DNA of 64,000 bases from the IMG/VR virus record IMGVR_UViG_3300042465_004839, positions 1 to 64,000 of that record. One strand, 5' to 3'. This stretch comes from a virus. Position numbers and translations under genes: made by a program. The notes under the pieces are model-generated. The model worked only from the letters and a program-made list of their open reading frames with translations. It ran no database searches and was not told the DNA's origin. Every line of letters starts with the position of its first letter. Positions within the stretch are counted from its first letter, which is position 1. Below, piece after piece: positions 3,453 through 42,500 of the stretch.

Positions 3453-4013
3453 ATGATAGGCATATATAAATTTACATTTTCTAACGGGCATTATTATATT
3501 GGTCAGGGGATTAATTTAAAAAGACGTGAGTTGCAGCATATTCGTGAAATGAATAAGCAAAGACATACAAATAAAAGAGTGCAAAACTGTTTTAATAAAT
3601 ATGGATTACCTTCATTTGAGGTTCTTGAAGAATGCGATAGAGAAGATTTAAATAGTATAGAAACAAAATATATTTCAGATAATATTTTAAATGATAATTT
3701 TTGTAATATATGTACAGAAGGAAAAAGTAGAAAAGGAGTAAAATCAAGCGAAGAAACAAAATGTTTAATTAAAAACTATCAATATGCTTCAGGTAAAAAT
3801 AAACCTGTTTATATATATAGTAGAGATGAGATGTTTTTGCTTGGTAAATTTAGGTCTATAAGGGAAGCAGAGCAATATATTGGATGTAGTCCAAAAAGTG
3901 TACAAACATCTTGTAAATCTAATGGTCATTATAATGTTGGTAAGTATAAATTTAAGTATGCATCACACGCAGATATATTATTAAATAGCGTAAAACAAAT
4001 AGTAAAACTTTAA
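3453..4013 (+). CDS. GIY-YIG homing endonuclease with NUMOD-like C-terminus
   Basis: GIY...YYIG motif, conserved R (KRRELQH) and E; C-terminal FRSIREAEQYIG DNA-binding module. Confidence 0.85.
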   Translation: MIGIYKFTFSNGHYYIGQGINLKRRELQHIREMNKQRHTNKRVQNCFNKYGLPSFEVLEECDREDLNSIETKYISDNILNDNFCNICTEGKSRKGVKSSEETKCLIKNYQYASGKNKPVYIYSRDEMFLLGKFRSIREAEQYIGCSPKSVQTSCKSNGHYNVGKYKFKYASHADILLNSVKQIVKL

Positions 4014-7150: not shown

Positions 7151-7197
7151 AATTGTCCACAAAAGTAATCGAAAATGCCTTATTTGACAATTAAAAT

Positions 7198-7235
7198 AAT
7201 TTAATTAGGAACTAAATGTGGAAAACATATCTTTG
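7198..7235 (+). promoter_or_regulatory. Bacteroidota-type promoter (AATTTAATTAG-N19-TATCTTTG)
   Basis: TAnnTTTG at 7228-7235, ATG 4 nt downstream. Confidence 0.7.
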
Positions 7236-11067: not shown

Positions 11068-11541
11068 ATGAAAATAAAAAATTGTAGCAAATGTCAAAAC
11101 GATTTTACACCACATTTAAGCAGTAAAACTTGTGATGTGTGTAAACGTACCGAATATTACCTTAAAACTCAAGAGAGGGCTAAAAACAAGCCAAAAAAGG
11201 CTATTAAAAAAGTAAGTGATAAACAAAAGAGTAGAATAGTGGCTAACAAAGATTATTATGTCCAGCAAATTGCTCGGCATATGGATGAGAATAAAGGTTT
11301 ATGCCCATGTGAAAACTGTGGTGTTGAAATTGTTAATCCATCAGGAAGGAATGTGAGTCATATTATAGCAGGATCAGCTAATAGTGCTTTGTACCATCAT
11401 CCATTGAATAGATTTATTCTTTGCCACGACTGTGAGAGAGTATGGACTAACGAGGACAAGACTAAACTAAAAATCTACCAAACCTCCGAAGAGAGAATGA
11501 TAGACTTAAAGAATTTTTATTATACTACTACTGTGGTATAA
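11068..11541 (+). CDS. Zn-binding HNH-like nuclease (NinG-like)
   Basis: CxxC pairs, SHII...N...LCHDC. Confidence 0.6.
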   Translation: MKIKNCSKCQNDFTPHLSSKTCDVCKRTEYYLKTQERAKNKPKKAIKKVSDKQKSRIVANKDYYVQQIARHMDENKGLCPCENCGVEIVNPSGRNVSHIIAGSANSALYHHPLNRFILCHDCERVWTNEDKTKLKIYQTSEERMIDLKNFYYTTTVV

Positions 11542-12230
11542 TATTTTGTTGTGTTTTTAAATAGTTAATCATTTCTTTAACTGTTTGCTAAAGAATGATT
11601 CTATCTGGTCCTTGTTTACGACAGTAAAGTCTTGTTCGTTGCAATAGTTTACAGCATTTTGTAAGTCTTTGCATAAAGTACTTTCACTTCCATCAGTTCT
11701 CTTTACTTTTACTTTACTTGATCCGATAATTACTTCTATTTTTGCATTCATTTTAGTATTTGTTGTGTCTTTAATCAGCCAATTGATTTATAAACAAGTG
11801 TTCTATTTCTTTTATGTTATCTCTACGTTCCTGCAAATGTATAGGTTTTAGTCTTGGATTCTTACTTTGCTCTAACTTCTTTAGTTGTGCCTTGCAATTG
11901 TTAATGTATTTCAAGCTCATCCCACACAGTAACTGCCTTTGTTTTTCGGTTATGATTAGTTGTTTCATTATTTATCTTTATTAAATCTTTTGTGGAAATA
12001 TCTTTCAGAATTATCTATTAAGTCTATTAAATCGTATAGATTATTATAGTCTAACGTAATATAAGTTAAATTTTCAGTATCTATCTTTACTGACTTGCTG
12101 TAATCAAATGTTAAATCTAATTCATCTAATTCAGCATCTAAAATTTTTGCTGTTACTGACTCCTTTTTCTTAATTAACTTGCCAACTTTTGGGCATAAAA
12201 ATTTCTCTAAATCTTTTTCTTTGTTTTTCA

Positions 12231-12749
12231 TTATGATTTATTTTTTTTAATTATTTGTTTTAGTTTACTGATATATTTCTCATCCTGTGCATAGATACTT
12301 GATAGTAGTTTAAAGTACTCAGCATCGGTTGTAATGAATAGGGCATTTTGTATCTGGAATGCTTTATAGTCAAGGATACAATCTTCTACTGACTCATACT
12401 TTGCATAAGCTCCATAGTCGTGGCTGTTGATAGCAAAGGTAAATCTTTGCGCTGCGACTCGCATACCAAAGCAATTCAAATTGTTTTTAAACACTTGTGA
12501 CTTAAAGTTACTGCTTTCTAATATTGCCTGTGCCATTACAATGTGGCTAAACTTTATTTTGTGCTTTTCAATACTTGACTTAAAACAATCAATGTCTATT
12601 TTGTTTTCAAGGCAGTTGGCAATAGATAATTCCTTTTCAAGTGTAGTCACTTTCTTATTAGGTAGCAGTTGAATTACTGCTACACCTGTTACTGCACCAA
12701 TAATAAATATTATTAGTACTATGGCTATATCTCTTTTAAATTCTTTCAT
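12231..12749 (-). CDS. Membrane-anchored GH73 glucosaminidase
   Basis: N-terminal TM; AQAILESS, NCFGMR, YESVEDCILDY, YAQDEKY. Confidence 0.8.
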   Translation of the reverse strand: MKEFKRDIAIVLIIFIIGAVTGVAVIQLLPNKKVTTLEKELSIANCLENKIDIDCFKSSIEKHKIKFSHIVMAQAILESSNFKSQVFKNNLNCFGMRVAAQRFTFAINSHDYGAYAKYESVEDCILDYKAFQIQNALFITTDAEYFKLLSSIYAQDEKYISKLKQIIKKNKS

Positions 12750-13330
12750 GTGTTTTTATTTATAGTAGCAAAATTATTAAAGTCACTATTGCTGATTACA
12801 TCTCCATAAAAATCAATTTCATTTACTTCCTCATTTACCAAAGCAAAGTCTAATAAAGCTCCGAGTACATGGCTATCTTTATCTAATACAGTAAAGTCAG
12901 ATGTGTCTTCAGCCCATTCTACTGCACTATTAAATCTAAATGATGTAAAGCCATCGTATGAAGTGTATCTTTCTTTTAAATAGGTATCAAAAGCATCGTA
13001 ATTACTTTGTATGTACTTTGCAATGTTACTTACTACAGGAATAACATCTACGTCTACTGCATCATTAGTGTAGTTATAGTACTTAGGGGATACAATTTTT
13101 TGATATTTCATTGACTCAATTAGTCCTAATTCAATTAGTTTAATTTCAATTTCATCAGTTAACAAATCAGCTATTTGTTCATTGTAACCTTTCCAGTCTA
13201 CTTCCACGTCATCTAAATCATCTACTTCATTGTACTCACGATATTCATCTAATTCACTATCTCCATCCCATATTGTATTGTAAAAGCCATTGAATAATGG
13301 TAACCACGTTTCTATTGTTTTATTTTCCAT
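12746..13330 (-). CDS. Highly acidic hypothetical protein
   Basis: 194 aa, D/E-rich; FNGFYNTIW, SPKYYNY, SYDGF motifs. Confidence 0.6.
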   Translation of the reverse strand: MENKTIETWLPLFNGFYNTIWDGDSELDEYREYNEVDDLDDVEVDWKGYNEQIADLLTDEIEIKLIELGLIESMKYQKIVSPKYYNYTNDAVDVDVIPVVSNIAKYIQSNYDAFDTYLKERYTSYDGFTSFRFNSAVEWAEDTSDFTVLDKDSHVLGALLDFALVNEEVNEIDFYGDVISNSDFNNFATINKNT

Positions 13331-16300
13331 AATTTTTATTGTGTTTTTAAATTGTTTGGTATTGTATGTTTAAAGGATTAATTAACTTGCCATCCATCAC
13401 GATTTCAACTACTGTATACGTTTCTTTTGGGGAAATTCGTAGCATCTTGCTGATACTTTCAGCAGCTTTGATCCTTTCATTCTGATGGAATTCTAATATT
13501 TTAATAATTGTTCTTCTTAACTGTGGCGTTAGTTTTGTTACCCTGTTGTTTAGCTCTGTGGCTATTTGTCCATTAGTTAAATTCATAATTTTTGTACTAT
13601 TTTTATGTGATTAATAATTACATCTTGTTTAATTGCTGTCAGTTTACTTAATAGTTTTATTGTTTTAATGGTTGGATCTTCTAAATCTTGTTTTAACTGC
13701 TTATTGTATTTAAAACAATCTACTATGTTTGCCTTTTGATGACTGTTCATATCTTTCTTAAATTAAAAGGTATAGCATCTAATCCCCAGTTAAACTTGTA
13801 ACCTACTGCTAACAGCTCTAATTCCATATTTACAAGTGTAGTAAATTCAGCATCTTCATTGCTGTAAAAGTTTACAATATCTTTTGCTTCTTGTGGTAAT
13901 TGGTCAATGTTTTCAAACAAGTCTACATATTCTACTTTCATATTTATTGTGTATTTAAATTGTTATCAATAAATTCTATGTCTACACATTTGCACATCAA
14001 TTCCTCAGGAAATGCTCCACAATTAAAGTATGCACCAATGAAGTATGCCTTTGCTTCGGATTCAGTTACACTACTACTTATATTCGTAGTGTAATTGTTT
14101 TCAGCATCATCAAATTTTACGTTTACTGTATTTAGTTTGCCCATTTTTATGTGTTTTTTAATTTTTAAATTTGTTTGTGTTTGTATGTTTAAAATCTTTC
14201 GTTAAATTGTTGTAATCGTTTGACAAGCATTCTATCTGATTCAAAAAGTATTTGTCTTTCAATAGGCTGTAAATCTTTGTATACATCAGTTGTTTTACTG
14301 ATTAATGGATGGGGATATTGTGCTTTTAAAATATCACTTGCTAATTTTAATTGTTCGCTGTTCATAATTCTAAATATAATTTTCGTAGTAAAATGATTGT
14401 TCAACAACAGGTAATTGTGTTTTTAAAACAATATGGTTATTGTTAATTGGCGCAATTCCATAACCAAAATGTATTGATAGTCTTTCTATCACTTGCTTTT
14501 TGGATGTTGCTTGTATTTGTATTTTGTGCTTTTTGTTTAAAGCTTTCGTTATTGTTACAATATAATTTTTCATAATTTTATGTGGTTTTACAAAGTTTTT
14601 TTAATTCATTTAAATCTTTAATTCTAACACTATCCCAATTGCCTTTAGTCAAATCTATTAAAGGCATATTGTTAGTTATAGTTGTATACTTATTGTATGT
14701 AACTGGGCTTGTATAGGTTACTTCGTAGTGACCATAGCCATTGAATCTAAATGTAAAATCGTTTAGTCTAATCTTATTTTTCATTGTGTTTTTTATGTGT
14801 TTTTTATGTGTTTTTAAATTGTCATTCGTGTAATTTCTGATATTATTAATTGAAAACTGTTAGATTGTAATTGTAAGTTACCCCTTTTCCACAATTCAAT
14901 ATCTTCAATACTTGCTACATAACCATCAATTTTTTGCAAAAAAGAAGATTCAAAACAATTGTTTTCTAAATTTAATTCTAAATCATAGAAGTTTAATTTT
15001 GTATACAAATGTTTTTCTAAATAAATGTCAATTGCTTCTTCCCAATCAATTGCATAAATGCTTTGAATTGAATCGTAACTGCTAACCTGATCACTTTCTC
15101 CTTTTTCAAAATCATCATCACATACATGATGGAATGATTCTATTTCGTATTTTCTCATAATAGTTTTTATGTGTTTTTAAATTGATATGTAATCTAAACT
15201 TTCGTATGTATAGAATTCTATGTAGTTATTTGGATAGGCATTTTCTAATGCAGTCATTAAATCATCATTGGAATATTCTATACCATTGTTTCTTTCTGAT
15301 AAAACGATAGGCTGTATCACATCCATAATTTCATCTTGTTTTAAATCAGTCAATAGTAAGAAATCTTCCTCCTGAAATGCTGTAGTATTGATGTTTATAA
15401 TGTTTAACTTTTTCATAATTTTTTGTTGTGTTTTTTAATTGTTGATTGTTTTTTAAAATTTTGATAGATAAATATTTAAAGGTATAAGGTCAAATTCTTC
15501 TTCGGTTTCTTCTACAAAATCATCATCATTAATATAATCTATTTTTCTGTTATCGTTATGTTGTTGTAACCATTCTGAAAAATGATTTTTATTTTCAATT
15601 ATCACTTCTAATTTTTGGTTATCCCCATTTCCATAGATATCATTATATCTTACTATGTACATTTCTTTTGCTGATTTTTCTTTACTTGTTTTCATAATTT
15701 TTTGTTGTGTTTTTTAATTTTTAGGTTTATAATATTTGATTTAAATAAATTGGTTTTAAGGTATAATTATTTTTCAATTTGTATGTTTGACCAGTGCAAA
15801 TGAGATCCATGTAATCAGATAACTGTAATGATTCAATACAATGCTGTTTTATAAGTTTTTTAGTGTTTTTATCAGCAGTAGAAACTGCTATAATATTACC
15901 TTTAAAATATATTGCTTTCATGTGTTTTTAAATTGTTAGTCTTTTAAAAGCTCTACTGTTAGGTTATAAAATTTGATGTAAAAATCAATTGGAATTAATG
16001 TGTTATATTTATCAGCTTGTCGCATAATTTCAGCCTTAATAATACTAAATTCGTTTTCGCAATTGTTTTTTTTGCAGTAATTTGTAATGTTTTCAATTCC
16101 AGCGTTTCTTAAATTGAAAGATGTTTGTTGTAATGTTTGCATAATTTTTTATGTGTTTTTAAATTATTAATTTATAAAGTCAGATAGTTTTGTATCTATT
16201 GGAAATTGCATATTACCTATCCAAATATTACCATCCTCAGATATAGACAAATCTTTTGTTTTTACATTATCGTAATCAGTATAGAATTGTCTAAATTCCT

Positions 16301-17483
16301 TTATTGCCTGTTTTTCAAATTTTTTATAATTTGTTTTGAATTGTTTTGAAGTATTCATAATTTTTTTATGTGTTTTTTATATGTTTTGTTTAAGTTGAAA
16401 GCAGTTTTATAACTTGCTTAGGTTAATGTATTATTGAATTACTATAGTTGAATCTAACGGATATATATTTAATTTGAGATCCATAATCATTTTGTTAAAA
16501 TCAAATGACCAAAATTGCCTATCCAATTGAATCAAATTACTTTTTTCATTATAGTAATATGGAATTGAATTGCTTTTTAAATACTTAATAATTTTTTTCA
16601 TAATTGTTTTATGTGTTTTTAAGTTGTTAGTTATTAATTAATTCTTTTAGCATTTTAGAATTGAAACAAATTGTTTCAAATTGACTTAAATATTCATCGT
16701 TATTTTGTATTTCGTGCAATTCGCATCCAATATAATCGCAAACTGATTCATTGAATTCATTTACTGATACAATTTTGGCATAACTACAGGCATTCATAAC
16801 ATCCGTAACCATCAATATTGGATCACAGCCTAAAGTATATTTATAGTATACGTTTAACGATTTTAAGTAAGGCTGTAAGCTCTCATAATTAATACTTGTG
16901 GTTTTATCATTATTTAGTTTAATGATATCGTTTAAATTTAAATTTTTCATAATTGTTTTTTGTGTTTTTAAATTTTTAAAATTTGTTTTATTTGGTCATT
17001 AAATTGATTGTATCTAAAATTTGATTTGCAGTAAAATAATCATTTATGCTATCAGTTAATTTTGTAATTTCTATTTTTTGGTTTAATTCATAATGATAGC
17101 ATTTATCGTAAAAGGCAGTTTTTACCTTTCCTGAAATATGATATCGTTTATTTGAATGCTTTAAATTATAAGGCTGTATTGTAATGATATCAACAAAACA
17201 AGTTTTATTATTAATATCTATAACTTTTTTTTGTAATGATGCGCCAACATTTACCAACTTTCCATTGGAATAATAATTGATAGGAATAAAGCCTAAATTT
17301 TTTAAGGTATCCCAACTTTTTAATTTTGTTATGTTCATAATTTTAAATGTGTTTTTTAATTGTTTTTAGATAAATTCCAGTGTTTAAAGTAATTCTACTA
17401 AAATGATTAGTAGAATTACTGCAATTGCCAAACCGATAATTTCTGATAAAAATAAAATTGTTTTTATAATTGTTTTCATAGTA

Positions 17484-17843
17484 CTAATAATTTAATTCAT
17501 TAAAAAAACTACTAATCTCATTTTCGTAAGAGTAAAATTTATCCCTTTCAACTTGTGATGAAAGTAAACTTGCTAATAATTCGCTATTGATATTTTTTAA
17601 TTCATAGCCATATTCTAACGCTAATTGAATGCTAATATTTAAACTACTATCATAATCTTTTAAATATTGAATAGCAGTAGAATAATAAATTATTTCAACA
17701 TCAAAACCATTGTCGTTTTCTATGGCATCCCTTAATTCATCATAACTTGTGATTTCGTCAGTCATGTAGTATGCCAAATCAATTTGGCTGTCTAAATCTG
17801 ATAAAAATGATTTTGCTTTTTTTGTGTTTTCAGAGTAATTCAT
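17484..17843 (-). CDS. Acidic protein, Ocr-like DNA mimic candidate
   Basis: 119 aa, acidic and helical; EIIYYSTAIQYL recalls the T7 Ocr PHYYADI segment (weak, by eye). Confidence 0.35.
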   Translation of the reverse strand: MNYSENTKKAKSFLSDLDSQIDLAYYMTDEITSYDELRDAIENDNGFDVEIIYYSTAIQYLKDYDSSLNISIQLALEYGYELKNINSELLASLLSSQVERDKFYSYENEISSFFNELNY

Positions 17844-17882
17844 AATTTGTTTTTTGTGTTTTTAAATTGTTAGGAATTTATG

Positions 17883-18416
17883 TTAGTTAATTTTTTGTAT
17901 TTTTGGATTTTCTAAAAACATTTTTTGAATTTCATCTAAAAAATTTGAACATTCTAAAACATTTGAATAATTAATTTTTTTATTATTAAAACTGATATCA
18001 AATTTTACAGTTTTATTAACTTGTTTACTTTTAGAATCAAATTGAGAATTAACATAATATGTACTCATATGTAAATAACCATTATGCCCATAACTTTCTT
18101 CTAATTTAATGCGACAATGTTTACTTCCATCTAATTCAAAATGAAAATTATAATTTTTAAAAATTTCTTTTAAACTATCAATAAACTGCAAAAATGTAGC
18201 ATTACACAAATTATCAAATATTTTATTTTCATTTTCAACATTTGTGTAAAAATCATTTTTTTCAATATTGTATTCATTTGCCTTGCTAAATAATGAATCA
18301 ATAACATTGTTTTGAGATTCATTTTTTTGTTTAATAGAATTCATTTGTTGGAATTCTAACACTAAATTGCTGACCAAATTGTTTTGGCTTTCGGTTAAAT
18401 TTTTAATTGTTTTCAT
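17883..18416 (-). CDS. Hypothetical early protein
   Basis: 177 aa, preceded by the leader repeat. Confidence 0.6.
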   Translation of the reverse strand: MKTIKNLTESQNNLVSNLVLEFQQMNSIKQKNESQNNVIDSLFSKANEYNIEKNDFYTNVENENKIFDNLCNATFLQFIDSLKEIFKNYNFHFELDGSKHCRIKLEESYGHNGYLHMSTYYVNSQFDSKSKQVNKTVKFDISFNNKKINYSNVLECSNFLDEIQKMFLENPKIQKIN

Positions 18417-19035
18417 AATTGTTTTTTGTGTTTTTAAATTATTGATTGTTATAATTGAATTCTAATATTTCGGATAAACTAAAATCAATTTGAATGATTC
18501 TATTTTCAATTTCGCATATACAAGTTACTCTTTTACCTTTCATTTGTGTAACTTGTAACCATCTATCATTTAAATTTTGATAGTTACTTTTGGTGAAAAT
18601 TTTTGCTGATAATAAATTTTTCATAATTGTTTAGTTTTGTTTTTTGAAATTTAAAATAAATAATTTAATTGCTGATGGAATTACTAATAATTCCGATAAA
18701 CCTAACATATATATGTTAGTTGTGATAATTGAAATTAAGGCTAAAATAAAGCCTAAATAAAGAAATGTAAATAATAAGTTTTTCATAATGTGTTTTTTTG
18801 TTTCGTTTTGATATGCAAAGAATCATTTAATCGTTTAAAACTGAAATAAAAATAGAATTAAAACATTTTAATTTGTAAAATGCATCTATAAATCAGACAA
18901 TTAAAATTTAAAATACTTAAAAATAAATATTATTTAGAATGATTCTAAAAGAAATAAGGCTAAAAATAGCAGTTTTTAACAATCAAAAAACTTTAAAGCT
19001 CTTATTTTTTATGCATAAAAAAATTGATACAAAAA

Positions 19036-19073
19036 ACCTTGTGAAGATCAGGAAATACAAGGCTTTACAAGGT
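19036..19073. other. Inverted repeat (hairpin/operator)
   Basis: ACCTTGTGAAG-N16-CTTTACAAGGT. Confidence 0.45.
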
Positions 19074-19221: not shown

Positions 19222-19473
19222 CTATTTTGATTCAAGTTGATTAATATATTTAAGTAAGTCAAAAGTAAAGTTATATTGTTTGCAAATAATGTACAAGGTA
19301 TTTAAAGATACATATTGAATAGAATTATTTTTAAGTTTATTGTAAAAAAAGTATTTACTGATATTTGTATCTTTCGCAAGTCTATAGATAGTTATTCCCT
19401 TATTACTTATTAAGTCAGTTATGAATAACTTAAATATTTCGTTTGTTGTATTCGTTAATTGTATTTTGTCCAA
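19222..19473 (-). CDS. XRE/Cro-type HTH regulator
   Basis: KGITIYRLAKDTNISK...VSLNTLYIICK. Confidence 0.7.
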   Translation of the reverse strand: MDKIQLTNTTNEIFKLFITDLISNKGITIYRLAKDTNISKYFFYNKLKNNSIQYVSLNTLYIICKQYNFTFDLLKYINQLESK

Positions 19474-20152: not shown

Positions 20153-20563
20153 ATGGAAAAGCAAAAAGAATACCCTAATTTAATCAGATTACCACAGAAA
20201 CCTGAAGTTGCTCATATCGAAAAGAAGCAAGGAATCTATCGAATTATATACAATGATGGCACTTACTATGTAGGTTCATCTAGTAATTTAAACAGCCGAG
20301 CATCAAATTATATGTGCGTTAGGCAATCTAAACACGCTTCTGGAGGATTAAAGAAGTTATTACAAGTTGGTGGTGTATTCGGTGTTATTGAGTACACGCC
20401 TTACCTTAACAAGGTGGATTTACTATTGTTGGAAAGAGAGGAAGTAATTAAAGATGGCAATAAGACTATAAATAGGAGCTGCCCTGCTTGTAGAAGAAAG
20501 ATTGCAACTTGTAATTGTTGTGATAATCATGAAGGGATTACTAAGATGACTGTCTTTTTATAG
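20153..20563 (+). CDS. GIY-YIG domain protein (start revised to 20153)
   Basis: GIYRI...YYVGSSSNLNSR; TATATTTG at 20141-20148 lies 4 nt before ATG 20153. Confidence 0.75.
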   Translation: MEKQKEYPNLIRLPQKPEVAHIEKKQGIYRIIYNDGTYYVGSSSNLNSRASNYMCVRQSKHASGGLKKLLQVGGVFGVIEYTPYLNKVDLLLLEREEVIKDGNKTINRSCPACRRKIATCNCCDNHEGITKMTVFL

Positions 20564-22195: not shown

Positions 22196-22270
22196 TTGTC
22201 GGGAGCAAGGAATTGAACCTCATTTTCTACCTCTCGTAGGTAGTGTAATTGCCATTATACGACATCCCAA
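22196..22270 (-). tRNA. Degenerate tRNA-like gene (non-canonical anticodon loop TACGAGA)
   Basis: D-arm GTAT-AATGGCAA-TTAC, anticodon stem CTACC/GGTAG, T-arm TGAGG-TTCAATT-CCTTG; imperfect acceptor stem, no U33. Confidence 0.55.
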
Positions 22271-22857: not shown

Positions 22858-23115
22858 GATTTTTGATATTTCATTTCACAAAAGTATCAATATAATTTAC
22901 AATTACTAATTAAATTATATTAATCTTTATAATAATATATTTTTATAATCTATACCTCGCCAAATGTACCTAAAAAAACATAGTTTTGGCGAGTTATGTT
23001 CTATATATTAGATGTCAGTTTAAAACTGATACCCTTACTAAAATACCTAAATATACATTTTAAGTACTCATTTTGTGTAATATCATACAAATACGGTACT
23101 TAAAATGTGATTTTT

Positions 23116-23938: not shown

Positions 23939-25096
23939 TTAAAAAATGTGTGAAATTCGTGCAATTTGACCATTTTCCTTACAATGCAAAAATGCTTCAC
24001 AACATTTTGGTGCGTGTTGATATCCGTTTCTGTGATGCCAACTGTCTGTACCTGAAGGACTTCTTAGACTTTCAATAGTTATACCTGCATAATCCTTGCT
24101 TGTCTTATGGTGGACGTGGTGTGTATAGATGTAACGATGTTTTGTTGCAGCCCACTCTCTACTAAACTCTACTGCCATTAATAGAGGCAAATCTTGTTGT
24201 TTCGCACCATCTCCATGAGTTGTGCCTATTAAATTTTTGTAATATTGAAAACCTTTTCTATGCGCTATTGAACAATCGAATGTTATGTTTTTACAGTCTT
24301 TAAAATATGTTTCAATTACCTGAGCAAGAAAAAATCCGTTAGTATAATCGTGATTACTTGGGTTAAATGTAAAGTGTACGTCTGCTATACTAATTAATAT
24401 TTCTAATACTTCAATGTATAATTGTTTTGCAATTAAAAAGTTGCTGTGCCACATTCCATCAGTATCTTGTGGAGTTCCGCTTGTAGTAGTTCTATTCGGA
24501 TTATCTATGTGGAGGATATCGTTACCGCCAATAAATAAAATTTTGTCTATATTAAAACTTGAAACCTTTTGTAATATACCTTTTACTCCATCTAAAACTC
24601 TTTGAACTGCTATTTGATTATTGTATGACTCTCCACTTTCAAAAGATGTACATAGTTTCCCAATATGTATATCTGCAGGATCTAAAACTAATAAGTAAGA
24701 ATCTTTGTTTTCTATTCTTTTTAATTTAGGGAATTTAGGAATATAAGCTTGAATATCTTTTATTAGTTCTGCTCTAAAATCTAATTCTAATAGTTCCTCT
24801 GGGGCTACAAAATTAGGATTCTTAATAAACAAACTTGCGGTTTTGTTTTTAAGCCACAAGTGTTTAACATTTCCAAAGTCTACATCTAACCCTTCAGTTG
24901 CTTCGTAAATTCCTTCGTGTTTATCTAAAATTCTATTACGATTTCTTCTTACATAAGTTCTTAGTAAGTCTACTTGGTATTTATCATCTCCTAAAATCGA
25001 TTTTGCTACCTGTTGGTCTGTAAATGATTCATTTTTTAATAAACACTCCTTAATTTTATTATCGTAAATAGTCCATTGTGATGTTTTGTTTCCCAT
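23939..25096 (-). CDS. Calcineurin-like metallophosphoesterase
   Basis: DIHIG, GNDILH, SNHD, THGD, HHVHH motifs. Confidence 0.85.
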   Translation of the reverse strand: MGNKTSQWTIYDNKIKECLLKNESFTDQQVAKSILGDDKYQVDLLRTYVRRNRNRILDKHEGIYEATEGLDVDFGNVKHLWLKNKTASLFIKNPNFVAPEELLELDFRAELIKDIQAYIPKFPKLKRIENKDSYLLVLDPADIHIGKLCTSFESGESYNNQIAVQRVLDGVKGILQKVSSFNIDKILFIGGNDILHIDNPNRTTTSGTPQDTDGMWHSNFLIAKQLYIEVLEILISIADVHFTFNPSNHDYTNGFFLAQVIETYFKDCKNITFDCSIAHRKGFQYYKNLIGTTHGDGAKQQDLPLLMAVEFSREWAATKHRYIYTHHVHHKTSKDYAGITIESLRSPSGTDSWHHRNGYQHAPKCCEAFLHCKENGQIARISHIF

Positions 25097-25297: not shown

Positions 25298-25471
25298 ATT
25301 GCAAAAGTAGTGATGTTTAGCTAAATAACTAATTAAATTAATTTAATCGAATTATATTCTTGGGTACTATACCTTTGTTAGATAATATTTTAGCTAAAAT
25401 TAATATTAAAAGAGTAAATAGCTAAAATGTTAGATTAAAAAAATATAATTTGTTTTATTGAATGTAGTTAT

Positions 25472-25595: not shown

Positions 25596-26057
25596 ATGAA
25601 AAACTTTGATAGTTTTAAAAACGCAATTTCGGTATACCTAAAGTTTAACGATAGATATTGCCTTCAATATTTAGAGCCAATAGGTCATAAAAAAATTTCT
25701 ATTATTTTATCTTTAATTAGAAAAGACAATGAAATTACACAGGAACAATATTATACAGTATGTTCAATGTATAGTCATTTCTATAGTAATTATTTTAAAA
25801 TAAAAAATTTAAATAGTTTAGAACCAAGAAAAATTGCACAGCAGTTTATTAGTAGAAAAAAAATAAGACATTTTATTTTTAAAAGAGATGGTTTTAAGTG
25901 CTTAAAGTGTGGTTCTGAAAATAAATTACAGATTGACCATATATTACCAATAGCAAAAAAAGGAGAAAATAAAATATCAAATTTACAAACACTTTGTATT
26001 TTTTGTAACAGTAAAAAAAGAGATAATTATAAAGACTATAGAAATGGCGGAAAATAA
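25596..26057 (+). CDS. HNH endonuclease (start revised to ATG 25596)
   Basis: RDGFKCLKCG...IDHILP...G.N...NLQTLCIFCNSKK. Confidence 0.85.
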   Translation: MKNFDSFKNAISVYLKFNDRYCLQYLEPIGHKKISIILSLIRKDNEITQEQYYTVCSMYSHFYSNYFKIKNLNSLEPRKIAQQFISRKKIRHFIFKRDGFKCLKCGSENKLQIDHILPIAKKGENKISNLQTLCIFCNSKKRDNYKDYRNGGK

Positions 26058-28094: not shown

Positions 28095-28290
28095 AAACAA
28101 ACAAAAACATGGAAAAAAAAGAATTATTATTAGAAATTGAGTGTAAGTATGGGTTCTATACCTGCGCAAACAAAGTTGAATCATTTTGTGAAACTTGTAA
28201 TGAAGGAGATAATTATGAAGACAATGGGGAATAAAATGAATTTTTTTGATGGTTTATTTTATTATGTGGACAAATTTATTATATTTGCAT

Positions 28291-28746
28291 ATGGAAAAAA
28301 TATTAGAACAATATGATAACAAATATTCAGTTACAACTGAAGGAAAAGTTTTTAGTTTAAAAGGAAACAAAAAAGAATTATTAGGGAAAATATGTAAATC
28401 AGGTTATAGACAAATTCTTATTAACCACAAAGGAATTAGAAAGTATTTTTTAGTTCATAGATTAATATTATCATCTTTTGTTCTTAATCCTTTTAATAAA
28501 AGAACAGTTAATCATAAAGATGGAAATAAATTAAATAATAATGTATCTAATTTAGAATGGAATACAGATTCTGAAAATCAAATTCACGCTATTGAAAAAA
28601 AACTTATTATACATAAAATTGATTACGAAATTGCTGAAAAAATAAGAAATGATGTAGGAAGTCATAGAGAATTAGCAATAAAATACAAATTAGGTAAAAC
28701 ACAAATTGGATATATTAAACAAAATAAAAGATGGAAAATAAAATAA
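28291..28746 (+). CDS. HNH homing endonuclease (start revised to 28291)
   Basis: VHRLI...VNHKDGNKLNNNVSNLEW...EN; TATATTTG at 28280-87. Confidence 0.85.
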   Translation: MEKILEQYDNKYSVTTEGKVFSLKGNKKELLGKICKSGYRQILINHKGIRKYFLVHRLILSSFVLNPFNKRTVNHKDGNKLNNNVSNLEWNTDSENQIHAIEKKLIIHKIDYEIAEKIRNDVGSHRELAIKYKLGKTQIGYIKQNKRWKIK

Positions 28747-31306: not shown

Positions 31307-31369
31307 AAAAATTTAATTAGTTACTGTCCAACCAATTTTTAACTTTGTGAAATCAAAACAAACATAATT

Positions 31370-32041
31370 ATGAATAAATACATCACATACTTCAGAGTAA
31401 GTACAAAAGAGCAAGGACAGAGTGGCTTAGGATTAGCTGCCCAAGAACAAATGGTTCTACCCATCACCAACAACGGAATAGTAGTGGCATCATTTACAGA
31501 AGTAGAGTCAGGAAACAAGTCTAACCGTAAAGAGTTAGAAAAGGCTATCAATACCTGTAAACAACATAACGCCATACTCCTCGTAGCAAAACTTGATAGA
31601 CTATCTCGTAACGTACACTTCATTAGTACACTTATGGAAAGTAAAGTACAGTTCAAGTGTGCCGATGCCCCAGAGATGGACTCATTCACCGTACACATAT
31701 TCTCAGCTCTCGCAGAAAGAGAACGTAAAATGATTTCCGACAGAACCAAAGGCGCACTACAAAGCATCAAAAGAATCATTGACAGAGATGGTGAGTACAC
31801 CACTAAAGCAGGTAGAGTAATATCTACTCTCGGTAACGGTCTACTACAAAACAAAGAAACTGCCAAAAAACAAATGGCGTACGTTGCATCCCACAGAGTA
31901 TACCAAAAAAAGTCTAACATAGGTCTTGCCCTCGTACAGTCACTATCACAAAATGGTGTTCCCAAGAAAGATATTAAACAAAAACTTGCCGATAACGGTA
32001 TTAACGTGTCACTACAAACAATATATAAATATGCAAAATAA
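31370..32041 (+). CDS. Serine recombinase (resolvase/invertase family)
   Basis: YFRVSTKEQ (catalytic Ser), ESG, KLDRLSR, AERERKMISDRTK; C-terminal HTH-like; own promoter at 31310-31347. Confidence 0.93.
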   Translation: MNKYITYFRVSTKEQGQSGLGLAAQEQMVLPITNNGIVVASFTEVESGNKSNRKELEKAINTCKQHNAILLVAKLDRLSRNVHFISTLMESKVQFKCADAPEMDSFTVHIFSALAERERKMISDRTKGALQSIKRIIDRDGEYTTKAGRVISTLGNGLLQNKETAKKQMAYVASHRVYQKKSNIGLALVQSLSQNGVPKKDIKQKLADNGINVSLQTIYKYAK

Positions 32042-32222: not shown

Positions 32223-32705
32223 ATGAGCAAACAAACAGCAAAATATATAATACCGCACATGACATTATCCATTGATGGTAGTTTATATAACCACAAAACA
32301 AAAAAATTTAAAAAGTGGACAAAAGATACTAATGGTTATATGAAAACACAAATTTGGGTTGGCGGAAAACCAAAAAACGTACATCAACATAGATTACTTG
32401 CTCAAGAATTTATTAATAACTCAAAAAATAAAAAGCAAGTAAATCATATTAATGGTATTAAGCATGATAATAGAATAGAAAATCTTGAATGGGTTACTCA
32501 ATCTGAAAATGGGTTACATTCATTTGCTAATGGATTGCAAAAAGTTACAAAACCTTGTAAAAAAGTAATTGATACTAGTAATAATAAAATTTATGATAGT
32601 GTAACAGAAGCAGCTAAACATAATGGAATATCAAGAAGTCATTTATCTAATATGCTTACAGGTAAATTTAATAATAAAACAACACTTAAATTATATGGAA
32701 AATAA
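32223..32705 (+). CDS. HNH homing endonuclease with NUMOD1-like tail
   Basis: HRLLA...VNHINGIKHDNRIENLEWVT...YDSVTEAAK. Confidence 0.88.
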   Translation: MSKQTAKYIIPHMTLSIDGSLYNHKTKKFKKWTKDTNGYMKTQIWVGGKPKNVHQHRLLAQEFINNSKNKKQVNHINGIKHDNRIENLEWVTQSENGLHSFANGLQKVTKPCKKVIDTSNNKIYDSVTEAAKHNGISRSHLSNMLTGKFNNKTTLKLYGK

Positions 32706-33512: not shown

Positions 33513-33545
33513 AAATATTTAATTAGGAAATTAATTTAGAATACC

Positions 33546-33644
33546 TAATTTTGCTCTTGTGTTTAGGAAATAGTTCTCATAATGCTATTCCTGATTAATT
33601 TGTTTTGTAATAAAATCCTTCAATTAATTTTGAGGGATTTTTTT
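33546..33644 (+). ncRNA. Candidate small RNA, about 90 nt
   Basis: TAATTTTG promoter 33546-53, hairpin AGGAAATAG/CTATTCCT, terminator 33612-33644, no ORF. Confidence 0.5.
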
Positions 33645-33660
33645 ATTTGAAATAAAGTAT

Positions 33661-33771
33661 TATATTTGCCCTGTTATAATGCGTGCGGCATAATAAAGAT
33701 ATTGAAAAATTCTCGTACACTTAGAGAAAATTTCAACTAAGCCTGATAGCCGCACGCTGTTGGGTTTTTTT
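33661..33771 (+). promoter_or_regulatory. Promoter + second three-hairpin leader with complementary loops and terminator
   Basis: TATATTTG 33661-68; hairpins 33674-96, 33702-36, 33739-67; T7. Confidence 0.7.
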
Positions 33772-34140
33772 ATGCCCAAAAATTAAGGTAATAATGGTCG
33801 GCACGAAAAAATGACAGCATTATTATTTAAAGCGATACTGTGAGGTATGTATAAATCGCAATCCCAGCTATAAAAGTAAAGGGAATACATTGGAGAATGG
33901 ACACTTCAAAAGTTGTACTTAAATTTGCAAACCCCATTTGTTTGTGATGCACCAAAGAGGGTTGCGGCTCGGGAAAATAGTCGTAATTTGAATAGTGAGT
34001 AGCCAAAGAGTTTAACACCTCTAAGGCTACCGCTATGCACATGGTAAGGATTGCTCTCAAAAAAATAGTTAGTTATAGTATAGTTTAAGTTAAAAAAAAT
34101 TAATTAGAATCCTTTTAAACAATACTTTACCTTTGAACTT

Positions 34141-36510: not shown

Positions 36511-39500
36511 ATGCCAGATAAAATAAAAGAAGCATTTACTGCTATAAACGACAAAGAATTATTTTTAGACGAACAAGACTTTAGGGATAATGTAATGAAA
36601 GACCCAAAAGGAACATTTGAAGCATTAAATAATTATGGTAAAACTAAAGGATTTTTTTTAGATTATGGAGATTTTGAAAGTGCTTTAGATTTAAAAAAAA
36701 AAGAGCCTACAGCACCATCTATACCAAATTTTTCAACAAGTTTGGGAGGGGATATGCAACCTTTGCCAAGTGGTGCAAAAAATATTTCCCAATCACCATT
36801 ACAATCGAATATAAAAACAGAGTTTCCGACATACATTGACCCTACAAAACCTTTAAAAACAAAAGAGGTTATAGATGTAAATGCGGAGAAGAAACCTTTT
36901 GATAGTGAAGTAATAAGAAAAGAAAGAGAGGTAAGATTAGGTACACATAGAGAAAAGATAATGTCTTCTATTGTTAAAGAACCTGACTTATATACTAAAA
37001 AAGCATCTAAGTCACATTATGGAACTATAGCAGTACCAGAAATGCCTAACATTGATAACATATCAAAGGCAATAGATTACTATGCAACAAAATTAGTTAA
37101 ACAAGGTGAATACCTTAGCCCACTTGATAAACAATATTTAGTAAATAGTGTTGCTCAACAAGTAAAACAAAGGAAAAATATTGCAGATGCAGCAGCAAAT
37201 GCAAGTCTTAGAGCAATAAACAGAAAAGAATTACCTGAATACGCTTACACAGGCGTAACTAATGCTAAAGGAGAAGTGTTAGTAAAAGGACTTTTTCAAG
37301 AAGCAAACGAAAAAATAATCAACGAACAAAATAAGGAAGTTGACAATTACAAAATAAATTCTGAAAATTTAACAAAAACAGTAGCAACAGAAGTTGCCCC
37401 AGAAGTAAATGCTTTAAAACTTGATGTTAAAGCCAAAGCAGAAATATTAAATCAAGAGGTAGAAACTGCTTTTAATAAATCATTTAACGAAAAAGACAAA
37501 GCTATGTATGACCAATACAATCAATTGGTTCAAAGTGGGCAAATGACTCCTGATGTAGCAAATAATGCTTTAAAAATAAAAAGAGAAGAATTACAAAAGC
37601 AGACACAAGCAGAGATAAGTGCTGCCTATGCTCCTAAGTTTGATGCATTAAATAAAGAATCTAACTTAAAATCAAAAGACATACAAAGTACATATAACAG
37701 AAACTACTTAGCAAAAGCAAACTTACTAAAAGAAACTACTAACAAAAAACTTCAAGAAATAGCCCAAAAAAATATGGTAAATATGCCTAAAGGGTATATG
37801 GAAAGATGGGCAAAGGATTTTCAAGAAAGTTTAGCTGAAATAGAAAAGAAAAACGTAAATCAAGCTTATTTAGATGCTAAAAGAATGCCAGCAGAGGCAA
37901 GATTAGCAAAAGCAGTTTCTTTTGGGTTTGGTAATGTATTAGGCTCAATAGGAGGGGCTATGTCATTTGCAGGATTAGATGCAAGTGCAGTAAACGATGT
38001 AGTTATTAAAACTACAATGCAAAATGAACTTACAAGTAGTGCGTATTACCGAATTAAAGATGAAGAAGCAAAAGCAAATGGAACTCCACACGCTAATTTT
38101 GTAGAGAAACTTTCTGATCCTTCTTGGTGGTATGATAATATGGGAAGTACCGCACCATTTATGTTAGTAACTATGCCAGTAGGTATAGCATCAGGTTATG
38201 GGGCAGGCTCTATAGCAAAATTATTAGGAGCGAGTAAAAGAGCAACAGCTATTGCAAGTGCAGTAGGTGGTGGTGCAGTAAGTTGGTATGGAGAAAACAC
38301 ATTAGAGGCAGGAAGTGCATTTAACGATGCTATTAATCAAGGGTACTCAGAAAACGATGCATCAGAAATAGCAGCAAGAACATTTAGAAATAACATAATA
38401 ACATTACCTCTAAGTGTATTCCAGCTAATGCCAGTATTTAGTAAATCATTTAAATTTACTAAAGCATTACCGTTAGAAATAATTTCTGGAGGTGTTGAAG
38501 AAGTGTTTCAAGGTTGGTCACAAGCTGAAGCAAATGCAGCAGCAAATGGGTATGATGTAAGTTTATTTGAGTATGCTAAAACCCCACAAGCATTAGAGGA
38601 GGGAACTATTGGAGGTGCGATGCAAGCAGGTATGGCAATGTTTGCATTAAATGAAACTCCAAATATTGACAAACAAATATCTGCATTAATGAGTTCTATA
38701 AGTGTAGGTGGCGAACAGTATGCAAGAGCAGTATTGGATGTAATGAACAAGAATCAAGCCATTACAGATGCTGAATTTAAAGAAGCTAACCTACAAATAG
38801 ACTACATCTTAAATGGTATTGAAAGTGTTCAAAACTTTAATGTAGACGACAATTTAAAGGCAGGATTAGTAGGTAAATTTGCTAAAATAGGCAGAGCAAA
38901 GGCATTAATTACAGATGATGAGAATGACTTGGCAAGTCAAGCTGCAAAAGAAATGATTGCAGAGCAAGAGAAGGATATAAAAGAAATTTTAAAAGGTAAT
39001 ACACCTTTATATTTAGTATTCCAAAAAGGGAATCCAATACCAACTTTAGCAAGTGAAGAGCAGTTTAACACAATACTAAAAGACCCAAAACTAAGAGAGG
39101 AATTTACATTACAAGCAATAAATGATGATGCATTGCAAAGTAAAATAGATGAAACATATAAAACAGGAGTAGTAACAGAAGAAGAAACAATAAATGCAGA
39201 ACAAGAAATTATACCAGCAACTGAAACCCCTGCTGCACCACCTAGCGGTGTTAGTGGTGAGGTACAGGCATCTGGTGATGTAGAAGCAAATATAGCCAAC
39301 AGAAAAAGAAAAGATTTATTCCCTGACAAATCAAGATTTGCTAATGACGTAGGTCAAAGTGGAGAAAACTCTCAAATATCATCATACAAAGAAGTAAATG
39401 GAATTGGATTATCAGAATATTCTAATCCTAAAAATGGTTTAGTAGATGTTATAATGACAGGAACTTCTGATAATGATTATGTTGGATACATAAGAATATA

Positions 39501-42500
39501 CGAAAACGGCAAGCCAACAAATAGATGGACATCTAAAATGTCAAACAAATCTGGCAATAAAGGCAACTTTAAAACCATGATAACAGAAGCTCAAAAATTA
39601 CTTCCAGAGGGTCACGAATATACTGAAACTACAAATATATCTTTAGATGGTTTAAGGGTTTATGCTAACAGTTTAAGCAGAGATTATGAAATAGCTACTG
39701 ATGAAGATGGAAAACCTATAACAAATAATGTTGAATTAAATAATGCAACATTAGCAGCACTACAAGGCGCAAAAAATCAACAAGAAACTGAAGATTTGTT
39801 TGACACTAAACGAGGAATTACAAGAGATGAATTTAATCAAATAAAAGAGCAAGTAAATAAATTATTGCCAAATACAAGATTATTATTTGACACGGCAAAT
39901 GGAATTGTAACAATACAATTACCTGTACTAAAATCAACTAAAAAACAATTAACAACTAACGAACAACAAAAAGCATCTAAAAAAGTTGCTGAAGTAACTC
40001 CTAAAGAAGGCGACAGCGTTATTATAAAATCACGTTTTGGTCGTGATGAAAAGTTGGTATTTAATAAAGGAGAGTGGAGAGTACAATTTGGTAAAGATGA
40101 ATTTAGTGATATTGGTAAGGCTGCTCAACAAGAAGCTCAAGATGCATTTAATAAAAAGAATGAACCTGTTGCTGAGGTTAAGGAACAAGCACCTGTAGTT
40201 AAGGAACAAGCTCCTAATAGGGCAGAAGGAAATGTTAAAGTAAAATCTTTTAAACAAGGAGATGGCGGAACAAAAGGAGTTTTTGAAGGAGAAGATGGTA
40301 AACTTTATAAATCTATTGAGCCACAAGAATCAGTTCAAGACAAAGAAGGAAACTTTAAGCGTCAAACCATTAAAGATACACTAACAGACGAGCATAAAAT
40401 ATTGTCTGAACTTCAAGATAACCCTCATGTACCTAAAGTAGGTAAAATTGTAGATACTACGGAAGGCAAAGCTTTTGAAATAGAAAAATTAGATGAAGTT
40501 GATACTTTTACTAAAGATGAGTATAGGGAAATTCAAAAAATACTAAATGACTTAAACGACAAAGGTTATCATGTAGGAGATAGAGTTACTGTTATGAAAC
40601 GCCCAAAAACAGGCGAACTTGTTATTATTGATTTTTCTGCTGGGTACAAAGGAAGTAGAATGTCAAGAGATGCCGATGAATATATGGGTGACGTAGCAAA
40701 GAAACTAAGTAAATCTGATGCTATAAATATTAAATTAGAAGACTTGTCAGAAATAAATAGAGAACAAGCAGATGCTTTTTTTGACAAAGAATCAACTACT
40801 GAATACTACTTAACACAAAGACCTCCAAGCATAGGAACACACCCAACAGAAGGATTATTATCGGTTAACGAAGCAGAATATAGAAACAGAAAAAATGTTT
40901 ATATACTTAAATATGATAGAAAACTTACACCAAACGAAATAGCTAACTTTGAACTAACTCCTAAAGTAACAAATAAAGAATTTTTAGGTCAAAAAATATT
41001 AGGTGTATATGGTAAAGTTCCATTTTATGTAACTAAAATAGATTACAAAAATGGAACTGTAAAAATGGCTGCGGAGGTAGTTGGAAAAGAAGTAGAAAAA
41101 GAAATTTCTTTTAGGGAGTTTAGTAAAAATATAGACGAAGGTAAATATAAAGTAGAAACACCCAAAGAAGAAAAACCTGTTAAGGAACAAAAAGAGCCTG
41201 TTAAGGAACAAACTGAAAAAGAAAAGGCTAAAGAAAAGGCTAAGGAAGAATTAAGAGCAAGAGCAGCAAAAGCTAAAGCTGAGGCTATTAGTGCTGCACA
41301 AAAAGTTCAACAAGCATTAGAGGCAACAGGAATAACTGTTGAAGTAGTTGATAGTGAGCAAGAGTTCCAAGATAAATTAGATGCTGAGGGTGTTAATAGA
41401 GCAAGTTCAGCAGGTAAAAGCGGTGTATTTATATCTAAGTCAGGTAAAATATTTATTAACGGTAGCAAGGTTGATGCTAACTGGGGTAGTGTAGATGTAT
41501 GGCACGAAGGAACTCACCCTATTATTAACATAATAAGGAACACAAACCCTAAACTATACAATTCAATAATAGATGGACTAAATAAATTAGTTACAAGTAA
41601 TCCAGAGATTGCTGATGTTTTAAAGTGGGCGCAAAAAAATTATAAAGGCAAAAACACTTTAGAGGATGAAACTATAACTGAAACCATAGCAAGAATAGCA
41701 AATGGCAATATAGATATATCAAAGATACCTACATCATTAAGAGATAAGATAATAGATTTCATTAATGAGATTGCTAAGTCATTAGGAATAAAACCTATGT
41801 TCAAAAGTTCTAATGTTGCAACATTTAAAAAGATAGCAGGCGAAATATCTGCTGCACTTAAAGAAGGTAAAGATATTAGTAGTATAGTAGGTGCAGAAAA
41901 TGTTAAGAATTATGAGTCAAAAATAACAATAGAAGACTCAGAGTCTTATGTTAAAAAAGCAAATGAATCAGAAACATCAGAAGGTATTAATAATGAAAAT
42001 ATATCTATTAGCGATATAAGCGGTAACTCTAGAAAAGGCATTCAGTTTTCAAAAGGCAAGGAAAGAACCGAAGAGAAAGCTAAAGAAACAGTTGAAGATA
42101 AAATCAAGGCAGAAACAATAAAAGCAGTAAAAAAATCTATATTAGACTACAAAAGTTTAAAAGGTAAAATATCAAGAACACTATTTTATGATAACACAAG
42201 GGTTGGTTCTTTAGAAATAAAAAACAGAATTACAGGATACACTCCACCTGTTATGGGTAAGGGTGGCTTCTTTTATTCTTATATGCCTAGTTCTTTAAAA
42301 AATAAAGCAGTATTAGCATTTACAAGTATTAACCAAGCCATACAAACCTTAAAGAGGCAAATGCTATACCCTGATGGGTTACAGGCTATTGCTGCTCAAA
42401 ATTTTCAAACTGCACATCTTGGGAATAAGTCTACCTTAGAAGCATTGTTTGGGAAAAGTGGTTCTGAAAATTTAGGCATATTTCAAGACTCTGTAAAAGA

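Follow-up and report, generated by a model that had tools for sequence, protein, structure and literature searches.

Short sequences repeated in front of genes are known from several viruses. The start-associated sequences (SAS) of Cluster K mycobacteriophages have the consensus GGGATAGGAGCCC with a Shine-Dalgarno (SD) core and lie 3-7 bp from the start codon (PMC3203893), and their function was still unverified in 2025 (PMC12699233). The promoter-early stem-loop (PeSL) cassettes of T4-type phages are about 100 bp long and combine a sigma-70 promoter with a terminator hairpin (PMC2839356). We describe a leader with an ACACA core that recurs in front of small minus-strand genes in a 64,000-nucleotide (nt) stretch of viral DNA (IMG/VR record IMGVR_UViG_3300042465_004839, positions 1 to 64,000; hereafter the window), which makes up the first 64 kb of one phage contig of 73,169 nt. 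On balance, we lean towards reading it as a start-associated translation leader in a polycistronic unit of accessory genes, with a second role as a seam for recombination.

A leader repeated through an array of 26 small genes

The contig sequence is present in lake-water metagenome runs, some of which contain 32-78% of the words sampled from the array, and no RNA run turned up among those listed for it. We regard its owner as a lake-water phage of Flavobacteria type. DNA searches of a phage collection gave no match to this phage, and its terminase has only 29%-identical relatives, from Flavobacterium and Cellulophaga phages. According to the ORF maps, 26 tightly packed small open reading frames (ORFs) of 31-194 amino acids (aa) occupy positions 11569..18786 on the minus strand; these accessory ('early-type') genes would form one transcription unit. 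The original prediction, made from the letters of the window, held that about 20 of these ORFs share one leader. The 9-nt core AAAAACACA does occur 20 times in the window, always on the minus strand and between 11550 and 18797, against an expectation of 3.42 ± 1.92 in dinucleotide shuffles, none of 100 of which reached 20. Over the whole contig, AAAAACAC has 22 minus-strand copies, 21 of them within the array, and one plus-strand copy. All-against-all comparison of the 26 array proteins revealed no paralogy (best E 0.039); because the flanked genes are mutually unrelated, gene duplication does not account for the identity of the leaders.

Alignment of the copies yields the consensus aACAATTTAAAAACACA(t/a)AAAAA(c)AATT-ATG. 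The predicted number of copies holds for the 9-nt core and its close variants but not for the full 22-nt string AAAAACACAWAAAAMAATTATG, which, without indels, has 4 exact matches and 7 matches at no more than 3 mismatches, compared with 0.08 expected; the remaining copies deviate from it by single-base indels or by a shorter distance to the ATG. The exact core lies within 30 nt of 16 of the 26 ORF starts, and variants differing at 1-2 nt stand at four more (18624, 14573, 13941, and 11751). The other four of the 20 cores are two extra units of a triple tandem, one intragenic copy, and one orphan. The intragenic copy (14416..14424, minus strand) sits inside ORF 14370-14573, away from any start, whereas the orphan leader (11537..11558, minus strand; core 11550-11558) comes after the last gene, with ATTATA in place of ATTATG and no ORF following it. 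The tandem, which had been noticed beforehand, consists of three 11-nt units (AAAAACACATA) at 14785..14815 (minus strand), before ORF 14578-14784.

Two pairs of leaders had been described as identical over 27 bp; the pairs are real and their identity extends to 31 nt. One is a perfect direct repeat on the minus strand, with its upstream copy (15689..15719) before ORF 15453-15695 and its downstream copy (15410..15440) before ORF 15177-15416. In the other, the stretch 18410-18440, which holds the core before ORF 17883-18416 (18427..18435, minus strand), is identical to 16944-16974, which holds the core before ORF 16627-16950 (16961..16969, minus strand). The motif had not been noticed in front of middle or late genes, and we found ACAC within -25..-1 of 18 of the 25 array genes compared but only 3 of 77 other genes (Fisher p = 1e-11).

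The 25 junctions of the array fall into two kinds. Fifteen have a gap of 14-72 nt, and all but one of these carry the exact core, the 15th having a variant; in contrast, the exact core is present in only 1 of the 10 junctions with a gap of 6 nt or less (Fisher p = 4.6e-5). The leader is therefore the whole spacer and does not merely lie near starts. Six ORFs lack a leader, and each of them overlaps the preceding gene or lies within 4 nt of it, a layout that allows translational coupling to stand in for an initiation site of their own.

In order to compare the leader with host-type starts, we used five Flavobacteriia-type genomes (19.1 Mb in all) as host proxies. The pattern AAAAACACA-N4-12-ATG had 177 matches in these genomes, where its reversed control had 109. 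The 7.3-kb array contains 13, about 190 times the density of the proxies. On these proxy figures we rejected the idea that the leader is a common host start context; the ACACA core exceeds the generic A-rich context, as had been claimed, and the motif is enriched in the array and sparse both in the rest of the phage genome and at the starts of the proxies. The pattern TTTAAAAAC-N6-16-ATG occurs 406 times versus 173 for its reversed control in the five proxies (2.3x enriched), and it also stands before 4 non-array genes of the phage, so this module belongs to a wider start-context repertoire. The ACACA part and the near-identity of the copies would be specific to this array, as far as the proxies can tell.

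The leader resembles SAS in several respects. Both are short and asymmetric, occur in similar numbers (11-19 copies in a genome for SAS, 20 cores for the leader) and always in the same orientation, and are restricted to the non-structural part of the genome (PMC3203893). Both are found directly upstream of the start codons of unrelated genes, contain the host initiation signal yet extend beyond it, and sometimes hold the stop codon of the preceding gene. SAS are virtually absent from host genomes, and the same may be true of the leader, which is rare in the five proxies. The two nevertheless differ in sequence, that of the leader being unrelated to SAS and carrying an A-rich signal in a host type without SD use. 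The leader also lacks ESAS-like inverted repeats, is spaced more loosely from the ATG, and differs between fairly close relatives, whereas SAS are conserved across subclusters. SAS are the closest known kind, of which the leader is an analogue rather than a member. A limited literature check turned up no report of such leaders in Bacteroidota phages. The array may offer a second, independent case of start-associated sequences, the function of which has been open in mycobacteriophages since 2011.

Signals for translation and transcription

The leaders are composed of 64% A and 2% G. At the 25 array starts compared, A occupies position -3 in 22 cases, -6 in 22, -12 in 15, and -13 in 16, and none of these starts has an SD-like word upstream. 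The positive initiation determinants in Flavobacterium johnsoniae are upstream adenines at -3, -6, -12, and -13, with no SD (PMC6847099), and the leader fits these Bacteroidia initiation rules. It shares with the SD-less initiation regions of Bacteroidia an A-rich and G-poor composition, A at -3/-6, and the absence of both an SD and an extra AUG (PMC6847099, PMC13000457); however, neither the ACACA core nor the near-identity of copies over 22-31 nt is a host feature. As its sequence shows, the consensus also has a stop codon in each of the three reading frames, namely TAA twice and the TGA within ATGA.

A TAnnTTTG box ending 3-12 nt upstream was found at 0 of the 25 array starts and at 11 of the 77 other phage genes. 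Since transcription starts 4-5 nt past the -7 box in Bacteroidetes promoters (PMC6847099), those 11 genes look to be leaderless operon heads, and the presence of such boxes at operon heads indicates a host of Bacteroidota type and the use of ordinary host promoters outside the array. We also listed boxes lying only 4-7 nt before operon-head ATGs, at window positions 20141, 25309, 34128, 45785, 50527, 52291, 57099, and 62934 and at contig positions 67040 and 67249, which would imply leaderless mRNAs for about 10 phage genes. The coding strand between 12800 and 18800 has a single TAnnTTTG box, which is intragenic, and we found no terminator-like sites on the coding strand within the array and no junction hairpins. 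A sigma-70 promoter scan gave no excess (106 vs 101.9). In related phage loci, TAnnTTTG is followed 2-16 nt on by TAAAAA(A/C) (TTTAAAAAC-type) and then by ATG at 40 distinct sites, 21 of which precede ORFs of at least 50 aa; four scrambled-box controls gave 9-27 sites, 2-9 of them before ORFs of at least 50 aa. In these relatives the module lies downstream of canonical boxes, inside the 5' untranslated region (UTR), and is thus transcribed.

This last result bears on an alternative to which we give a low probability, namely that the leaders are promoters peculiar to this phage and are recognised either by a host polymerase that the phage has modified or by a phage polymerase that escaped recognition. 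Each small gene would then be transcribed separately, from the A that follows CAC, into an mRNA with a short leader or none. The conserved part of about 17 nt (AACAATTTAAAAACACA) has the length of a promoter for a single-subunit polymerase, but the motif lacks a TAnnTTTG box and its TTTAAAAAC module follows canonical boxes in the relatives. The motif is confined to one gene class, in an array for which we found no canonical promoter, and its variable distance to the ATG (0-11 nt after ACACA) would be harmless, given that the phage tolerates leaderless starts elsewhere. The intergenic repeats of halovirus HF2, which like the leader are short, AT-rich, and located before many viral genes, were reporter-tested for promoters in an archaeal host and carry promoters according to the title of that paper (PMC8707807), whereas the evidence on the leader points to a transcribed element. 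A preprint on phi14:2 reports that its early transcripts are preceded by no common motif.

The search for a polymerase also tells against promoters in the leaders. Promoter repeats of the T7, N4, or crAss type go together with an RNA polymerase that the phage encodes or carries. No RNA polymerase or sigma factor was detected among the phage ORFs by Pfam and PHROGs scans, which jointly covered the ORF map apart from 11 very short reading frames of 35-62 aa (78 ORFs in the case of PHROGs), although very divergent polymerases may escape family scans. The 12 largest proteins contain no crAss-type DxDxD motif, with the exception of DFDVD in a 412-aa protein that has weak, sub-cut-off AAA-domain matches, and we read this DFDVD as a chance occurrence. 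A crAss-type virion polymerase was rejected, the 3079-aa protein having a DarA_C domain only and no DxDxD catalytic motif. This protein (ORF 36511-45750, plus strand) looks like a polyvalent virion protein, DarA_C being a defence-against-restriction domain. Taken together, the transcribed module in the relatives, the absence of a -7 box, and the absence of a phage polymerase favour a role of the leader at the mRNA level.

At that level, the leader could also be a handle for a trans-acting factor, be it a translational repressor, an endoribonuclease, or a small RNA (sRNA). T4 RegA and RegB are models for such a repressor and such an endoribonuclease, respectively. The motif is restricted to one gene class and is located at the initiation region, but we found no RegA-like or other RNA-binding family in the Pfam and PHROGs scans of the phage ORFs. 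As for the sRNA, the original prediction had proposed co-regulation of the leaders by one at 33546. The candidate (33556..33650, plus strand; promoter box at 33546) has two hairpins and a U-run, folds well (-24.5 kcal/mol, z = -5.1), and exposes a free 5' CUUGUGU, the UGUGUUU of its 5' end being complementary to AAACACA. This seed is only 7-8 nt long, however, and duplexes with 25 leaders had a mean energy of -9.4 kcal/mol versus -9.05 ± 1.2 kcal/mol for shuffled sRNAs (z = -0.29). As many as 49 of 150 shuffled sRNAs paired with the leaders as well as the real one did, so the proposed regulation by this sRNA was not supported. No homologue for a covariation test was found in the records of four relatives, two of which also lack a structural protein. 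For SAS, too, a function as a binding site is still under consideration (PMC3203893, PMC12699233), but we hold a trans-acting factor to be the least likely of the explanations considered. Next to the candidate, a second small RNA may be encoded at 33661-33775 (plus strand), where a promoter box (TATATTTG, at 33661) precedes a stretch with a T-run and a long-range pairing of GCGTGCGGC...GCCGCACGC.

Genome-specific leaders and the apparent exchange of cassettes

For the exonuclease gene upstream of the array (23939-25096), IMG/VR contains over 600 relatives. The ACACA array is absent from 80 fetched exonuclease-relative loci (L005-L084), and no ACACA arrays are present in the IMG/VR relatives with an 83-87% identical exonuclease. 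Scans of IMG/VR and of genome contigs with TTTAAAAACACAWAAAA revealed no second ACACA array among the matches listed, which are scattered with one or two per stretch. In two loci (L083 and L079), AAACACG(G/A)A words occur 21-23 times per ~20-21 kb on one strand; we rejected them as leaders, as they mostly encode in-frame Lys-His-Gly/Glu within coding sequence.

Through the 194-aa gene of the array, we identified a sister clade of four members (L326, which is the L001 contig; L328, which is the L003 contig; L329; and L330) whose 194-aa proteins share 65-70% identity. The arrays of this clade have a related yet different leader, of the CAATTTAAAAAAACAAAAAACAATCAyy-ATG type, sometimes with AGGAG. 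Other phages found via the same protein have their own repeated leaders before unrelated genes. The leader of L344 (TAAAAAACTAGAATACAATC) occurs 18 times, including 5 times before members of one paralogue family, and that of L373 (CAATTTAAAAACTATCAA) 6 times. In L343 (L343:5783-9804), 6 copies of a 35-nt leader precede unrelated genes; this leader contains an inverted repeat (CCTAGAAATAGG) forming a hairpin and is a hairpin-bearing counterpart of the leader in the window. L065 has 5 copies of TTTAAAAACAAATAAGAT-ATG, 4 with a stricter 17-nt pattern. The 80-aa gene at 15453-15695 has an AGGAG-type leader in L003/L328. Since the same gene has a different leader in a relative and other genomes have leaders of their own, the leader belongs to the genome, not to the gene. 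The repeated-leader phenomenon is recurrent, and its sequence is specific to each genome.

The window and the sister clade have 3-5 of the 26 array genes in common, in a different order. Among the cassette genes, the 80-aa gene (15453..15695, minus strand) is shared with L328/L003 only, at 85% nucleotide identity, with a synonymous divergence (dS) of 0.33 and a ratio of non-synonymous to synonymous divergence (dN/dS) of 0.39. Its homology with L328 extends from 8 nt before the ATG to 14 nt past the stop codon. The neighbouring shared genes 12746-13330 and 14189-14365 show dS values of 1.19 and 1.62, respectively. In the window, the gene is part of a 279-bp cassette bracketed by the perfect 31-nt leader pair. 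A bracketed low-dS cassette is the outcome one would expect of insertion by crossover within the leader, and a cassette between two like junctions is also the expected product of mini-circle insertion, as proposed for PeSL (PMC2839356). The sister clade has 165 distinct homology breakpoints, not independent of one another, and 85 of these are located within 30 nt of a start codon, versus 14% expected. The shuffling of cassettes at the leader had been part of the original prediction, along with the mapping of breakpoints in relatives, and it receives indirect support from both the cassette and the breakpoints.

PeSL and the leader are alike in being repeated junctions before ORFans in a hyperplastic region. 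Unrelated genes are swapped between PeSL and probably also between leaders; crossovers between flanking copies, including near the ATG, were shown for PeSL and are proposed for the leader (PMC2839356). At 25-31 nt, the leader differs from PeSL in size, and it has neither a host-type promoter box nor a hairpin. Integron cassettes share with the array the arrangement of promoterless small genes with a recurring junction between them, but attC-type hairpins are missing from the array and no integrase gene adjoins it. A serine resolvase (31370-32041, plus strand), ~12 kb away, was the only recombinase found.

From these results, we infer polycistronic transcription, a translational role, a recombination mechanism, and early timing, the last from the gene layout only. 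In the model that we favour, the 26 small accessory genes make up a unit of ~7.3 kb that is probably polycistronic, and the motif would be the junction between its cistrons, comprising four parts. The first is TTTAA, which in some junctions provides the stop codon of the preceding gene. It would be followed by the TTTAAAAAC module, found in 5' UTRs of related phages and modestly enriched before ATG in the proxies, by the presumably lineage-specific ACACA, and by an A-run ending in ATT-ATG, which would place A at -3 and -6. On the mRNA, the leader would act as an unstructured, G-free, SD-independent ribosome loading site of uniform strength, serving each cistron that is not coupled by overlap to its neighbour. 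Because the same 25-31 nt flank unrelated genes, the leaders are usable as homology patches, and they would serve in this way for the insertion, loss, and exchange of cassettes. Such exchange could run on the general recombination of the phage, keeping the leaders alike within one genome and letting them differ between genomes.

Several observations weigh against this model. We found no canonical promoter for the array in 18787-19060, where there are four one-mismatch boxes only. The distance between AAACAC and the ATG ranges from 6 to 18 nt, more than one would expect of a determinant that acts by its position. The initiation rules leave ACACA unexplained, and in some registers its C's fall at -12/-13, where A is favoured; moreover, an identity of 31 nt exceeds the needs of a ribosome landing pad. 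The proxy genomes are stand-ins picked from pattern hits and may not represent the phage's host. Selection for intact genes would also leave breakpoints at gene borders. Finally, the similarity between leaders is flat with respect to their distance along the array (Spearman -0.08, permutation p = 0.70), so there is no sign of local leader spread.

The flat similarity also counts against another explanation, in which ACACA plays no part in expression and is a passenger, marking a single founder leader. This leader would have spread as cassettes came and went through recombination within leaders, and translation would depend on the A-rich part alone. A leader sequence specific to the genome rather than the gene is what this explanation expects, as is the lack of ACACA arrays in relatives with such similar exonucleases, and the triple tandem and the orphan leader resemble scars of recombination or slippage. 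The recently exchanged 279-bp cassette between its perfect 31-nt direct repeats is also in keeping with it. On the other hand, 16 copies in use keep the exact 9-mer whereas a copy inside ORF 15727-15921 has decayed, suggesting selection at starts; this argument is tempered by the intragenic copy at 14416-14424, which is still an exact 9-mer. We consider the passenger explanation unlikely, though a little less so than promoters in the leaders. To much the same extent, we doubt a combined reading in which ACACA is a private address label, by which a protein or RNA encoded by the phage switches a block of ~20 accessory cistrons on or off through translation or mRNA cleavage, in a host type without an SD to exploit, and at the same time the capture site of an integrase-free, integron-like cassette system. 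If it were true, each lineage would keep its own label, and the leaders of L344, L343, L373, and L065 would be labels of the same kind.

Returning to the preferred model of a translation leader and recombination seam, the genes that it would serve are mostly orphans. The only family matches in the array are a 172-aa glucosaminidase, the 194-aa protein (phrog_37559), and one weak match; 23 of the 26 array proteins have no match in PHROGs and 25 of the 26 have none in Pfam. With nearly all array proteins matchless, the anti-defence role that had been ascribed to the cassettes found no support. The 177-aa and 114-aa cassette proteins have no relative in IMG/VR, and a profile search with the 194-aa family against PDB sequences gave no significant match. 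The occurrence of own leaders in several lake and marine phages, together with one apparently recent cassette move, suggests a general, recombinase-free trading of small accessory genes. How Bacteroidia ribosomes choose internal starts without an SD is only partly understood, and ~20 near-identical compact leaders provide a ready test set. They may also yield short and portable initiation regions with which to engineer Flavobacteria and Bacteroides.

Leader copies and other features of the contig

The remaining leader copies, all on the minus strand, are listed here in the direction of transcription. The first core (18789..18797), before ORF 18631-18786, belongs to a truncated leader without TTTAA, with AAACAC 9 nt from the ATG. 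Further cores are found before ORFs 17484-17843 (17855..17863), 16988-17338 (17348..17356), 16431-16601 (16612..16620), 16167-16358 (16369..16377), and 15936-16142 (16152..16160). The core at 15921..15929 abuts the ATG of ORF 15727-15921 (ACACATG). Before ORF 14814-15158 (15170..15178), the TAA inside TTTAAAAAC is the stop codon of the upstream gene, and before ORF 13944-14144 (14150..14158) the core is 12 nt from the ATG. The conserved 194-aa gene (12746-13330) is preceded by the core at 13340..13348. Its last codons are occupied by the core at 12749..12757, through an ATGA overlap, and this core abuts the ATG of the glucosaminidase gene (12231-12749), which also has a TAATTTTG -7-type box 19 nt upstream of its ATG. 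The decayed copy inside ORF 15727-15921 is located at 15855-15880 (minus strand; AAAAACACTAAAAAACTTATA) and has ATA in the ATG position; this copy and the intragenic one at 14416-14424 may be relics of former junctions.

The array is closed by a terminator-like hairpin with a T-run (11471..11507, minus strand), the fold of 11470-11560 having an energy of -20.4 kcal/mol (z = -5.2). Upstream of the array, a weak hairpin with a U-run (19033..19066, minus strand; z = -2.4) is likely the terminator of the preceding leftward unit. Just upstream lies a gene for an 83-aa Cro/C1-type helix-turn-helix protein with a TTG start (19222..19473, minus strand; Pfam HTH_26, E 8.9e-9, 35.9 bits vs a cut-off of 22). 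An Rfam scan of the array gave no family and no ribozymes, and the sole Rfam match above the gathering score in the window is an abiF RNA (RF03085; 46311-46347, plus strand; 39.9 bits vs 37) between a ferritin-like gene and a 1373-aa gene. The load of homing-type endonuclease genes is unusually high, with five HNH and two GIY-YIG genes (3453-4013, 11068-11541, 20153-20563, 25596-26057, 28249-28746, 32223-32705, and 59499-59993); that at 11068-11541 converges on the end of the array. A tRNA-Ser(CGA) gene is present at 22198-22270 (minus strand).

We also observed a second repeated signal, consisting of TTTAATTAG (or TTTAATTGT), a spacer of ~19 nt, and a TAnnTTTG -7 box. Its sites are 7160-7194(-), 7201-7235(+), 22879-22913(-), 25302-25336(-), 31313-31347(+), 33519-33553(+), and 34100-34135(+). 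A looser form of the pattern gave 8 matches versus 1.3 expected, and 0 of 100 shuffles reached 8. This signal appears to be a class of promoters particular to the phage, distinguished by a separate upstream element. Upstream of the array, at 18870-18905, there is a degenerate version of it (TTTAATTGT, 19 nt, TACAAATT). Beyond the window, a 1530-aa protein (contig 67261-71853, plus strand) has a crAss muzzle domain (E 4e-19), a hint that this 73-kb phage, in which no virion RNA polymerase was detected, has a tail distantly similar to those of crAss-like phages.

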